Shown here: positions 6,113 to 30,230 of the stretch, one piece after another
How positions within the stretch are numbered: the first letter of the stretch is position 1
How the letters are laid out: each line of letters starts with the position of its first letter
Source of the DNA: Microcystaceae cyanobacterium
GTDB taxonomy: Bacteria > Cyanobacteriota > Cyanobacteriia > Cyanobacteriales > Microcystaceae
Length of the DNA stretch: 34,430 nucleotides
Direction: 5' to 3'
Assembly (NCBI GenBank): GCA_041746575.1
Contig: JBGTGT010000037.1
Span: 1 to 34,430, forward strand
Notes under the pieces: model-generated
What the model was told of the DNA's origin: nothing
Databases searched by the model: none
Seen by the model: the letters and a program-made list of their open reading frames with translations, nothing else
Translations under genes and position numbers: made by a program

Positions 6113-6211
6113 TTCTACTTTTTTCGACTTAGTTCTACTTTTTTACCCCTAAAATGAGTCACATTTCCCAATTCTCTGGGACTGACATCCGAAGATTGGG
6201 TAAATTACAGT
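6113..6211 (+). promoter_or_regulatory. Putative regulated promoter: 10-bp-period TTCnACTT repeats, TGGGA-CTGACA-TCC core and -10 TACAGT
   Basis: Repeats start at 6113, 6123 and 6133; core 6177-6190; CTGACA 6182-6187, 18-bp spacer, TACAGT 6206-6211. The same core occurs at 28751-28764. Confidence 0.55.
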
Positions 6212-6245: not shown

Positions 6246-6734
6246 ATGTTGAATCTATCTCGCTTTTTGCTTGCTTCTATTTTAACATTAACAACTTCAT
6301 TTTTTGCAGGAACTAATTTTGTATTTGTAGAAGAAATCACCTGTCAAGAGATGATAGGTTCAGTGACGGTTTATAACCTCAGAGTTCCTGCCGGTAAGAC
6401 GTGTCGTTTAAACAGAACAAATGTGAAAGGAACGGTTAAAGTAGAAGAAGATGCCACCCTTAATGCAACGGAAATCCAAGTAAGGGGCAATATTCAAGCC
6501 AAAAATTCGAGCGTTGTTAACATTGCCAATTCAAGCGTTGGCGGCAGTCTTCAGCTTCAACAAAAGAATCAAGCTCGTGTCATCGGTTTCAAAATTAATG
6601 GAGATTGGCAATCTGAGTCGAATCGTCGTCGATTAGAAGCGGAGCGTAACCCAATGGGCGGTAGTTTACAAGCTTTTCAAAATCGTCAAGGAATTACGAT
6701 TGTTAGTCATCGAATTGATGGCAATTTACAGTGA
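6246..6734 (+). CDS. Secreted beta-solenoid-like repeat protein, probably C-terminally truncated or decaying
   Basis: Signal-like N-terminus; repeated (V/I)xG(N/S/D)(L/I)Q units; ends abruptly at GNLQ-TGA. Confidence 0.6.
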   Translation: MLNLSRFLLASILTLTTSFFAGTNFVFVEEITCQEMIGSVTVYNLRVPAGKTCRLNRTNVKGTVKVEEDATLNATEIQVRGNIQAKNSSVVNIANSSVGGSLQLQQKNQARVIGFKINGDWQSESNRRRLEAERNPMGGSLQAFQNRQGITIVSHRIDGNLQ

Positions 6735-27758: not shown

Positions 27759-28428
27759 ATGCTAATTACTGTCAGCGAAGATACCTTAATACTAGCACCG
27801 GGTAATGGGGTGATTTTTCCTCAGCAAACGTGGAAAGACTACGAAGAATTGTTGAATATCCGTTAACCCCAAAAATATCCCAAATTATCTTTGTAATGCT
27901 AAAACTCGACAACTTCACCTTATATCCCCTTTACCCAGTCACGGCAAGTGCATTGATACCCTCCGAGATTTAGTCAAAATTCTTTTACGTCGGAAGGGCA
28001 GAGATTGGGAGTGTTTTGAGCCAATTACTCTAAAAATAACGCTTAAAGCAGGTTTAGAACCCGATACGTGTTTTTATCTCGCCAAGAGACAAGCCATCTT
28101 AGGAAAAGATAAAATTGATTTAACCCTTGATCCGCCGCCTGATTTAGCCATAGAAGTTGATTGTACCTCAATTACCGACGTAGAAGTCTATAAATTGCTT
28201 AAAATTCCAGAGTTATGGGTCTATTGTCAGGAAAGTCTAAAGATTTATCTTTTGCAAGGAGAACATTATCAAGAAAGCGAAGAAAGTCGCCTTTTTCCTG
28301 ATCTGAATCTTCCGAAGATTTTACCCTATTATATTGAACTCGCTTGGACTCAAGGTTCAAGTGTTGCCTTGCGTCAATTTGAAGCGTTAGATAATTTCGA
28401 TGAGTCAATACCGGGCGATTTAGATTAA
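27759..28428 (+). pseudogene. Uma2-family endonuclease pseudogene
   Basis: ATG 27759 reads MLITV...QTWKDYEELL; TAA at 27864-27866; +1 frameshift near 27890; then GLEPDTCFY...DPPPDLAIEVD...IPELWVY to 28428. Confidence 0.88.
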
Positions 28429-28443
28429 TATGCTTTTACTTGG

Positions 28444-28481
28444 TTCCCCTAAAGACATTAACAATAACCTCTTTAGGGGAA
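28444..28481. terminator. 12-bp perfect hairpin between convergent genes
   Basis: ttcccctaaaga (28444-28455) pairs with tctttaggggaa (28470-28481); 12 nt past the peptide stop. Confidence 0.7.
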
Positions 28482-28493
28482 AAGCAACTGAGA

Positions 28494-28646
28494 TTAACAG
28501 TTATCTTTATTAGGGTTACCTGGACATTGATCATTCATCACGACCGTTGAATCAGCGATGGGATTAGCAAAGGCTACTCCGGCAGTGTTTAATCCAACGA
28601 TTAAGAATAAAATCCCAATTAATCCTAGTTTAATCGGCTTTTTCAT
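28494..28646 (-). CDS. Unannotated 50-aa secreted peptide precursor with C-terminal Cys-x8-Cys
   Basis: MKKPIKLGLIGILFLIVGLNTAGVAFA-NPIADSTVVMNDQCPGNPNKDNC*; RBS AGGAGGA 28657-28651; signal peptide ending AFA; own promoter and downstream hairpin. Confidence 0.85.
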   Translation of the reverse strand: MKKPIKLGLIGILFLIVGLNTAGVAFANPIADSTVVMNDQCPGNPNKDNC

Positions 28647-28729
28647 TATCTCCTCCTGATTGCACCCTGATTGATCCGCAGAAAGGTCAATGTTGATCCC
28701 AAAAAACCAACTTATCTCTTTCTGCCTAT

Positions 28730-28788
28730 AGCATAAGCAATCTCAAAGAAGGATGTCAGTCCCATTGAACATGGAAAAAAGTGGAACT
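28730..28788 (-). promoter_or_regulatory. Putative promoter of the peptide gene: TTCCA repeats, TGGGA-CTGACA-TCC core and -10 TATGCT
   Basis: CTGACA 28759-28754, 18-bp spacer, TATGCT 28735-28730. 28777-28751 is 22/27 identical to 6164-6190. Confidence 0.6.
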
Positions 28789-28850: not shown

Positions 28851-30230
28851 ATGAAACCGACAGGTTGGGATCAGTTTCTCAGAGAGATTATTATCGATTA
28901 TGGCTTAAAAGGCAAACTCAAAGATATTTTTTTGGTGCGTTTTGCTTACGAAAACTGGCGAAAACCCGATACAGAGGTGTGGGAATTAGCGGAAGCGGCG
29001 AGCCACGAAACCTATAAGAAGCAAATGACCGAACTTTACCGCTTTTTTGCCAGTGATCAACCTAACGGTTGCCCCGAATTGGTGTCCCATAGTAAAGGTC
29101 CGGGAAAATTCTCGATTGTGCGAGATTGGCTGAAAGATATTAAATATCCCGACTGGAAACAGCATAATTCTCCTTATTCTGTTGCTAATGCTCCTATTAC
29201 CTTGCCAAATGTCAATTCAAGCGATACGAGCATCTATATTCCGCGTCCTCCCGTTGAAACTGAATGTTTTCTAGAAATAACCCAAGCAGGAGCGTTAATT
29301 CGGATTAAAGCCCCTGAAAAAATGGGTAAAACCTCTCTTTTATCAACAATTTTAAACTACACAGATACCCTCAATTATCGAAGCGTTTATTTAAACCTTC
29401 AAGGGGCAGAAGGGGCAATTTTTAGTAGCTTGGACAAGTTCTTGCGGTGGTTTTCCGCTAATATTGCTAGGGAACTTAATATGAAACCGAATTTGGATGA
29501 TTACTGGGATGAGGAATTATTTGGTAGTTTGGTTAGTTGTAAAACATATTTTCAGAGTTATCTTTTGGCGGAAATTGGGCAACCTTTAGTCTTAGGATTA
29601 GATAATGTGGATCGCTTATTTGATTATCAAGATATTGCTCAAGATTTCTTTCCAATGCTTCGTTTTTGGCATGAAGAGGCAAAAAACAGTGAAATATGGC
29701 AAAATTTACGTTTAATTATTGCCAATTCGACAGAAGCCTATATCAAACTCGATGTCAATCAATCTCCCTTTAATGTAGGGCGACAGGTCAAATTACCCGG
29801 CTTTACCCTCGAACAGATGACCCAACTTGCCCAAGCCTATCAACTCAATCAACAGAATTTAAGCTCTTTCTTGACGAAATTGAGAGATTTAGTCGGTGGT
29901 CATCCCTATCTTTCTCGTTTAGCTTTAGAAGCTGTGCAAAATGAAAAAATTGACCCTTATACTCTCTTAACAGAAGCCTCGACTCAAGGTGGAATCTATG
30001 CCGCTCACCTACGCCGTCATTGGAATGCTCTCCAATCTTCTCCCGATTTAACCAAGGCGATGAAAGCAGTTGTCACCTCAGAAACGGGGGTTCAATTAGA
30101 TCCAGCGGTCGCCTATCGTTTAGAAAGTATGGGATTAATTACCCTCAATGGCGATGAAGCCCAAGCCAGTTTTCAATTGTATTTAAATTATTTTCGTGAT
30201 AACTTCAATCTGGGCGAAACCAGTCGCTAA
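28851..30230 (+). CDS. AAA_35-family P-loop NTPase with probable N-terminal HTH domain
   Basis: YIPRPPVE, Walker A APEKMGKTS, Walker B LVLGLDNVD, SPFNVG, GGHPYL. The N-terminal IFLVRF...ETYKKQMTELY...GPGK...WL resembles a LuxR/sigma-4-like HTH (inferred). Confidence 0.85.
   Translation: MKPTGWDQFLREIIIDYGLKGKLKDIFLVRFAYENWRKPDTEVWELAEAASHETYKKQMTELYRFFASDQPNGCPELVSHSKGPGKFSIVRDWLKDIKYPDWKQHNSPYSVANAPITLPNVNSSDTSIYIPRPPVETECFLEITQAGALIRIKAPEKMGKTSLLSTILNYTDTLNYRSVYLNLQGAEGAIFSSLDKFLRWFSANIARELNMKPNLDDYWDEELFGSLVSCKTYFQSYLLAEIGQPLVLGLDNVDRLFDYQDIAQDFFPMLRFWHEEAKNSEIWQNLRLIIANSTEAYIKLDVNQSPFNVGRQVKLPGFTLEQMTQLAQAYQLNQQNLSSFLTKLRDLVGGHPYLSRLALEAVQNEKIDPYTLLTEASTQGGIYAAHLRRHWNALQSSPDLTKAMKAVVTSETGVQLDPAVAYRLESMGLITLNGDEAQASFQLYLNYFRDNFNLGETSR

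Follow-up and report, generated by a model that had tools for sequence, protein, structure and literature searches.

The locus raises two questions: whether a 50-codon reading frame on the minus strand (28494..28646 of the window, the whole 34,430-nucleotide stretch that was analysed) is a gene, and if so, what its product does. An earlier note had read it as a hidden gene for a secreted peptide, closed by a disulfide and acting as an extracellular signal or inhibitor. On the evidence of sequence comparison it is a real gene of a conserved, uncharacterised family, here called the Ssr2153 family, whose product is predicted to be exported and to carry two cysteines. We assign the gene to a STAND-based circuit, so far undescribed, whose operator is defined and which would be categorically new if the step from peptide to receptor holds. 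Our main reading, to which we give a probability of roughly 0.45, is that the peptide acts as feedback ligand on a STAND sensor that spans the membrane and controls the peptide's own promoter.

The frame is present exactly as the earlier note wrote it, and the parts named there are found on the minus strand. The strong ribosome-binding site is AGGAGGAG at 28650..28657, and an AGGAG-like site is conserved in the aligned upstream regions. Residues 1–27 (28566..28646) form a predicted Sec signal peptide, with MKK, a hydrophobic core and a terminal A25-F-A27, the motif from which the cleavage site is predicted. Cleavage there would leave the mature peptide of 23 residues (28497..28565) that had been proposed, ending in Cys41-x8-Cys50, with a predicted disulfide between the two cysteines. 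Just 3′ of the stop is a perfect 12-bp inverted repeat (28444..28481; arms 28470–28481 and 28444–28455, loop of 14 nt). It has no U-run and is therefore unlisted in the terminator scan; it is probably a 3′ stabiliser or terminator. The combination of a ribosome-binding site, a signal-like start and a terminal cysteine pair is found in one of the 8413 ATG reading frames of 40–70 codons in the same genome, namely the peptide frame, and no paralog of the peptide was found there. On the plus strand, at 27759–28428, fragments in several frames converge on the hairpin; they resemble what is presumably a Uma2/DUF820-type gene, and the two pieces tested gave no Pfam match.

Searches of Pfam, NCBIfam and the PDB sequences with the peptide gave no match, in keeping with the earlier failure to recognise a family, and the ESM Atlas, searched with a Ssr2153 homolog, returned only unnamed clusters with scores of at most 0.80, which is at chance level. 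A direct single-sequence homolog search gave only two proteins, so synteny and profiles were needed. In the slot beside the divergent neighbouring gene, frames of 50–60 residues ending in C-x6-8-C are found in Crocosphaera, Microcystis, Hydrococcus, Pannus and diatom endosymbionts. The peptide profile matches all 21 genomes of the bacterial family in a sample of the phylum, once each and with strong E-values, and 21 of 24 in a sample of relatives; inspection of two that it missed (G008 and G023) revealed a divergent member in each, so that the peptide is single-copy in 23 of the 24. It is single-copy in every genome with a match. Among 1.84 billion representatives there were 33 matches, 32 of them short family-like proteins (30 sequences viewed). 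The other match, of 390 residues, was rejected as a hydrophobic chance match, and weak profile matches in 11 genomes outside the family, lying in long frames at E 7e-4 to 9e-3, are likewise put down to hydrophobic chance.

An exact-sequence look-up of the protein from genome G199 identifies the Synechocystis ortholog as Ssr2153, which matches the peptide profile with E 2.1e-13. The gene is thus not hidden in every genome, its ortholog being annotated as ssr2153. Members of the family share homology over the leader and the cysteine loop, are single-copy and have a common promoter. Both cysteines are invariant in 43 of 43 aligned members, and D48 is nearly so. The spacing between them is 7 in 35 homologs, 8 in four and 6 in four; the Cys-x8-Cys ending therefore describes the gene's own lineage but is not a family rule. 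Both the x8 spacing and the neutral charge of the loop are peculiar to that lineage, whose loop exceeds the family consensus in length; 39/43 homologs have a net acidic loop. An AxA-like motif follows the hydrophobic core in 42 of the 43, which agrees with the Sec-type signal originally proposed, whereas a lipobox cysteine at this place is seen in none of the 43, so that the family does not look like one of lipoproteins.

Pairwise dN/dS is 0.09–0.25 in four groups of relatives and lowest at the loop, indicating purifying selection. Over the last 12 codons it is 0.04–0.08 in the two groups where it was computable, the value being saturated in the gene's own genus and based on only two changes in the Synechocystis group. 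Only the last 10–12 residues are constrained, and the spacer drifts. The loop is nearly identical in Microcystis, Crocosphaera, Synechocystis and the endosymbionts, with strong conservation within and between most genera and few lineage variants (for example CKYPPCD in loci L062 and L064). The gene is intact in intracellular diatom endosymbionts with reduced genomes. Because it is kept there, and because the loop is conserved across genera, a periplasmic and cell-autonomous role fits somewhat better than a strain-specific extracellular signal. The check that had been suggested, for a conserved frame and cysteine pair in cyanobacterial genomes, came out positive, the frame, leader and both cysteines being kept across the family. 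The reading as a signal or inhibitor also gains from the context described below (linkage, co-retention and a promoter common with a STAND pair).

Divergent from the peptide gene, at 28851..30230 on the plus strand, is the gene for a type I AAA_35 protein, ortholog of Sll0877 of Synechocystis (AAA_35 is presumably the Npun2340/2341 family). It has a helical N-domain (residues 1–106) and a STAND-like NTPase. Its AF2 model (pLDDT 86.5) has as top Foldseek matches PABY2304 (E 5e-9), SSO1545, CED-4, Apaf-1 and NRC, and the MalT fragment 8bob is also among the fold matches. The model thus has the fold of a STAND NTPase, a P-loop NTPase extended by STAND/CDC6-type helical and winged-helix parts, and the type II protein discussed below links to it through the common PF14516. 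The Walker B motif reads D-N in 30/31 type I proteins, as against D-E in 86/86 of type II. Among 64 loci, the peptide gene faces type I head-to-head within 700 bp in 37, stands at a greater distance in 6 and is absent from the fetched flank in 21; these 64 exclude a paralog (L054) and NTPase-only proteins (L066–L080), and L063, which ends before the peptide position, is not counted as near. The neighbours vary; among those listed, judged by their N-terminal sequences, no recurring transporter, tailoring gene, modifying enzyme, exporter or histidine kinase was seen beside the peptide.

Some other neighbours are worth recording. In many genera a gene for a protein of about 145 residues (starting MNASE) is convergent with the peptide gene, even where type I lies elsewhere (L013, L016, L019–L021, L025, L084, L085, L096, L121, L133, L137, L206–L208). 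At some Crocosphaera loci (L020, L022, L216) inserted transposase-like and other genes separate the peptide from type I, but not from its promoter. In distant lineages the gene for a secreted protein, rich in Arg and Asp and with a cysteine pair, is inserted between a variant-element promoter and the peptide gene (L062:2094–2729; L063:132–641; L064:2243–2755 (-)).

The promoter was missed by a generic promoter scan. Its parts, all on the minus strand, bear out the earlier claim that the gene has a promoter of its own. The −10 element TATGCT lies at 28730..28735, with a start predicted near 28724 from conservation and from the geometry of three mapped Synechocystis starts. The element GGGACTGACAT at 28753..28763 occupies −39 to −29, overlapping the −35 position, and its core is invariant in 26/26 sequences. 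At 28769..28786, alignment and a repeat scan show a direct-repeat box of TTCYACT-type units with a period of about 10 bp, a predicted activator site. All 26 aligned upstream regions contain GGGACTGACAT, a TAnnnT box 16–17 nt further on and T-rich direct repeats further up, and these elements travel with the peptide gene when it is apart from type I. A second copy of GGGACTGACAT, with upstream repeat units, is found in the window at 6178..6188 (+), heading a 162-residue frame (6246–6734, +) that has a signal-like N-terminus and a weak match to β-solenoids.

The element marks a small regulon. It has 3–13 matches, some overlapping, in 23/24 and 21/21 genomes of the bacterial family, nine in G033 and none in G013; in other genomes there are one or two matches in 21 of 379, similar to the reversed control. 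The present genome has nine exact sites, two intragenic and seven of promoter type. Each of these seven heads a frame whose N-terminus is signal-like or membrane-type. The frames encode the peptide, two Ssr2194-like proteins, a HExxH protease-like protein, a Slr1704-like protein and two other signal-bearing products. In G199 three of the five sites are of promoter type and belong to ssr2153, ssr2194 and slr1704, in each of which the element begins exactly at −39 of the mapped start. A double repeat lies upstream of 79 of 88 promoter-type sites (many of them orthologous), compared with a background of 0.1%; the units are in helical phase, and a 10-bp spacing is dominant. When the element sequence was searched for in papers, the best 30 of 304 matches were of primer type and unrelated to cyanobacteria.

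The Ssr2194 family consists of single-helix proteins of 58–71 residues with a GGGACTGACAT-type promoter, in 1–6 copies per genome. The present genome (G000) has members at C8:1311–1490 (-), C98:22670–22858 (+) and C12:49232–49408 (-), and another is found at L234:1565–1762. The family adjoins type I or type II in L050, L165, L176, L179 and L205, and is probably a fourth core part of the circuit.

The candidate reader of this promoter is the type I N-domain. It is a highly conserved helical domain of 106 residues in which a helix-turn-helix (HTH) is weakly predicted. It has no Pfam match, and Foldseek gave nothing below E 0.001. The best structural match is the C-domain of Spo0A (Z 4.7, rmsd 3.8, 89 aligned), with many HTH proteins in tied rows, and hhalign aligns it weakly, in register, with sigma region 4 (E 0.0098, probability 4%). 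Distant homologs of the N-domain occur in other families, fused to other long proteins. The box or element is present upstream on the outward strand in 8 of 18 of these, as against 18 of 2763 control genes, with a box pattern slightly loosened after the distant loci had been viewed; the other 10 have no box, and neither box nor element is found at any of 15 type I paralogs with other N-termini. Because the box follows distant homologs of the domain, we infer that the N-domain reads the promoter, with the repeats and the −39 element as candidate sites; in having in-phase repeated boxes that travel with it, the domain resembles that of MalT-like activators. At several loci in other families (L215, L242, L243, L245, L246, L251, L253) the N-domain fusions face small membrane-protein frames, and the intergenic region holds that repeat box, sometimes in palindromic form.

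It is very unlikely that the promoter is instead read by a sigma factor or unlinked regulator, the AAA_35 pair being a neighbouring defence or signalling module irrelevant to the peptide. Such a reading would account for the location of GGGACTGACAT at the −35 position, 17–18 nt from a sigma70-type −10 box, and for the modest fall of ssr2153 and slr1704 in group 2 sigma mutants in extracts of published data; moreover, STAND-WD40 proteins are described as often being defence sensors in a passage of PMC13581612. However, each genome with type I orthologs has 3–13 matches to the promoter, whereas other genomes do not rise above the control; the box is found with the N-domain in other families too, and in proteins of different architecture; and single-copy retention in endosymbionts is atypical of defence loci.

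The proposed sensor is encoded outside the window. The type II protein, of 1166 residues and orthologous to Slr0143 (Hat), is at G000:C115:22363–25863 (-) and combines AAA_35 with a single membrane helix and some 14 WD40 repeats, which are predicted to form a double propeller. Basic residues number 6.2 before the membrane helix and 2.6 after it, and because of this charge bias the propeller is predicted to lie outside, in the periplasm. In a tree of 17 rows (N-terminal halves, midpoint root), the type II proteins of clustered loci, that of contig C115 and Slr0143 form one clade (99/98), apart from four paralogs of the present genome. A complex prediction for peptide residues 21–50 with type II residues 488–1166 scored 0.03 against a mark of 0.32, which is no evidence either way.

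The genes for peptide, type I and type II cluster in G033, G008, L062 and L064. In G023 the peptide gene abuts that of type II, and stays beside it although type I has moved. In most genomes, including the present one, type II is not linked to the others, and ssr2153, sll0877 and slr0143 are scattered in Synechocystis. In 24 genomes of the bacterial family, the peptide, the type I N-domain, type II, the Ssr2194 family and the promoter are each present in 23; G013 (1.5 Mb) is without all five, and G033, from outside the family, has all five. These genomes, being related, do not count as independent cases, so that the shared absence of all five comes down to a single loss, in G013. The small genomes of three diatom endosymbionts and of three Synechocystis-type organisms keep one AAA_35 protein of each type and no others. 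In G297 and G131 the genes of a type I-like and a type II protein diverge; neither a peptide in their vicinity nor an exact match to the promoter was found there. Among other AAA_35 proteins of the present genome, membrane sensors of the WD40 or CHASE2-like kind are paired with what look like response-regulator, GGDEF or other HTH fusions, the domains being assigned partly by eye (C123:127829–133520, C80:1842–6962, C5:9525–16033, C123:93415–96123, C66:13835–15187 and C54:13472–14881). Because other pairs carry GGDEF, response-regulator or CHASE2 domains, the design of the AAA_35 pair looks modular and widespread.

On the basis of these observations, we propose a circuit whose five parts are those present together and missing together. 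Type II is predicted from its sequence to keep an intact ATPase inside the cell and, beyond a single membrane helix, to expose a double WD40 propeller to the periplasm. When active, it would co-oligomerise with type I, its partner in gene order, whose ATPase looks impaired. The clustered type I N-domains would then dock at the TTCYACT repeats, which are in phase, and at the −39 element, a step that is well supported, and the bound oligomer would activate, as MalT does, a handful of exported and small membrane proteins. In the last and weakest step, the peptide, as the most abundant and most tightly linked target, may occupy the periplasmic propeller and damp the sensor; an envelope disturbance such as salt shock would lower the level, oxidation or binding of the peptide, and so release the circuit.

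A hetero-oligomer of types I and II acting through in-phase boxes seems to us likely. Given such a circuit, we think it reasonably probable that the peptide is the ligand, and overall its chances in this role are about even; it is more likely to be inhibitory than activating. The peptide is a likely feedback signal because its promoter and its all-or-none distribution are common with those of the predicted sensor and the DNA-binding partner. These features do not single it out, because the Ssr2194 family has an identical distribution and adjoins type I or II, and Ssr2194 could be the modulator of the circuit instead of the peptide.

RNA data are available for Synechocystis, and the transcription check suggested for the gene succeeds there, the ortholog ssr2153 being very abundant. 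In two raw runs of one study its peak-bin depth is 89,000 and 204,000, compared with mostly below 7,500 in flanking genes, and a 2.4-kb stretch took 1.3% and 2.8% of the records read, nearly all on ssr2153. At two positions in the gene (L147:5505 and 5551), some 11–17% of RNA reads have A>C, near frequent loose read ends; this is probably a chimeric-read artefact. In table entries of a dRNA-seq study (PMC4195498), start-site reads of ssr2153 reach 132,515 and are highest under iron limitation; they are already high in exponential growth and high light, unlike those of ssr2194 and slr1704. In passages of PMC4759255 the latter two are named as salt-inducible, and both rise in a lexA mutant, as they do in a sll1252 mutant in an excerpt of PMC10743179. 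In the lexA data as excerpted, ssr2194 rises 42- and 21-fold, compared with changes of 2.4- and 0.79-fold for ssr2153 (PMC4759255). The slr1704 gene is strongly up in flocculated cells and is called a hypothetical S-layer protein in a passage of PMC11053131. Taken together, the published data fit an envelope-stress regulon; that ssr2153 tracks ssr2194 and slr1704 only partly is counted against the circuit, as are the separate location of type II in most genomes, the weakness of the HTH prediction, the 10 of 18 distant N-domain homologs lacking the box, and the neutral, long loop of the gene's own lineage.

These expression data bear on two other readings of the peptide. It may be no more than a product of the regulon, a mini-protein abundant in the periplasm or at the surface, such as a wall or S-layer accessory or a redox or metal buffer using the cysteine pair and acidic loop, while the STAND pair senses something else. 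We regard this as doubtful, if credible. It would explain the very high transcript and its maximum under iron limitation; it agrees with the export of other members of the regulon, of which slr1704 is called a hypothetical S-layer protein in the passage just cited, and a regulator usually adjoins its main target. It sits poorly with the confinement of constraint to the last 10–12 residues with a drifting spacer, which is the pattern of a ligand precursor and not of a structural protein, with the single copy wherever the gene is found, and with the place of the peptide beside the sensor gene in G023 after type I had moved. Improbable, in our view, is a released autoinducer whose level would rise with density or within colonies and which would switch the circuit on by binding the WD40 propeller, as peptide quorum sensing in unicellular cyanobacteria. 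The anatomy is that of a pheromone precursor, the gene appears to be controlled by the circuit that it would trigger, loop variants by lineage exist (CKYPPCD among them), and slr1704 responds to flocculation in the passage cited. But start-site reads of ssr2153 drop from 78,842 in exponential to 15,491 in stationary phase, a roughly fivefold decrease in the table entries of PMC4195498, the loop is near-constant across genera, unlike pherotypes, the gene is kept intact in intracellular endosymbionts, and Sec export leads only to the periplasm, with no dedicated exporter seen alongside.

Hat is annotated as controlling high-affinity inorganic-carbon uptake, a role that the proposed circuit leaves unexplained. 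A full-text search that was largely without subscription papers, the original Hat studies among them, gave no paper linking ssr2153, sll0877 or slr0143 or reporting the promoter; in the passages retrieved these genes are list entries only. In passages on ssr2194 and slr1704, which are recurrent in stress transcriptomes, no regulator was found for them. AAA_35 is mentioned once in the excerpts of PMC11119718.

The circuit would join ssr2153, ssr2194, sll0877 and slr0143/hat, all of them orphans in the main cyanobacterial model, with slr1704 under one defined operator, and it is near-universal in the family, including bloom-forming Microcystis, marine nitrogen fixers and diatom endosymbionts. 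We give even odds to the wider proposal that Synechocystis, Microcystis, Crocosphaera and the nitrogen-fixing diatom endosymbionts have a phosphorylation-free, NLR-like transmembrane receptor which reads a self-made disulfide-looped peptide through a WD40 double propeller on the outside and, with a helper STAND, forms a DNA-binding oligomer, and that this is the mechanism of Hat. If true, two-component systems would have an alternative in a STAND receptor whose sensing reaches across the membrane and whose signal is relayed to DNA by a helper STAND. It would also be a bacterial counterpart of a peptide-hormone/NLR pair wired straight to transcription, and would supply the missing mechanism of the long-orphaned Hat.

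The closest relatives of the three proteins are their direct orthologs in Synechocystis sp. PCC 6803, Ssr2153, Sll0877 and Slr0143 (Hat), which stand there as separate entries, respectively an 'unknown protein', a 'hypothetical protein' and a WD-repeat protein tied to inorganic-carbon uptake. Among regulators, MalT of E. coli and activators of the AfsR type combine a STAND NTPase with an HTH, and the boxes of MalT are in phase, with one at about −38/−39. Type I resembles MalT in having a STAND NTPase, joined to a weakly predicted HTH, in its predicted oligomer and in its several in-phase boxes, one at about −39. It differs in that the sensor and DNA-binding parts are two proteins, that the sensor is transmembrane and the DNA-binding domain N-terminal, and that the proposed ligand is a gene-encoded peptide instead of a sugar.

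In MgrB-PhoQ and CpxP-CpxA an exported regulon product damps its own histidine-kinase sensor, and MgrB bears a disulfide. The peptide, too, is a small product of the regulon, predicted to be exported, and in our proposal it would restrain its own sensor within the envelope. Unlike these it has no Pfam or NCBIfam match, its linked sensor is AAA_35-TM-WD40 and not a histidine kinase, and it is predicted to be cleaved free, whereas MgrB is membrane-anchored. PatS/PatX, with the motif RG(S/T)GR, and the Gram-positive peptide pheromones agr AIP, Phr and ComX resemble it in having a short precursor, an export signal and a conserved C-terminal business end. The motif is absent from all 43 homologs, as the earlier note had observed of this one peptide, and, unlike the pheromones, the family shows no linked modifying enzyme, exporter or histidine kinase among the neighbours listed, and little strain-level variation. 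Nor does it resemble a double-glycine bacteriocin or RiPP: the leader is of the AxA-type Sec kind in 42/43, in line with the earlier remark that a double-glycine leader is lacking, and no peptidase-ABC exporter or tailoring gene recurs among the neighbours listed.

[quoted passage not shown] As in Apaf-1 and the NLR sensor-helper pairs, we find a STAND with a predicted double WD40 propeller and a pair of intact and eroded NTPases that is predicted to form a hetero-oligomer. The present pair differs from them in having a membrane helix between the NTPase and the propeller, and in its predicted output, which is transcription and not cell death or a nuclease.
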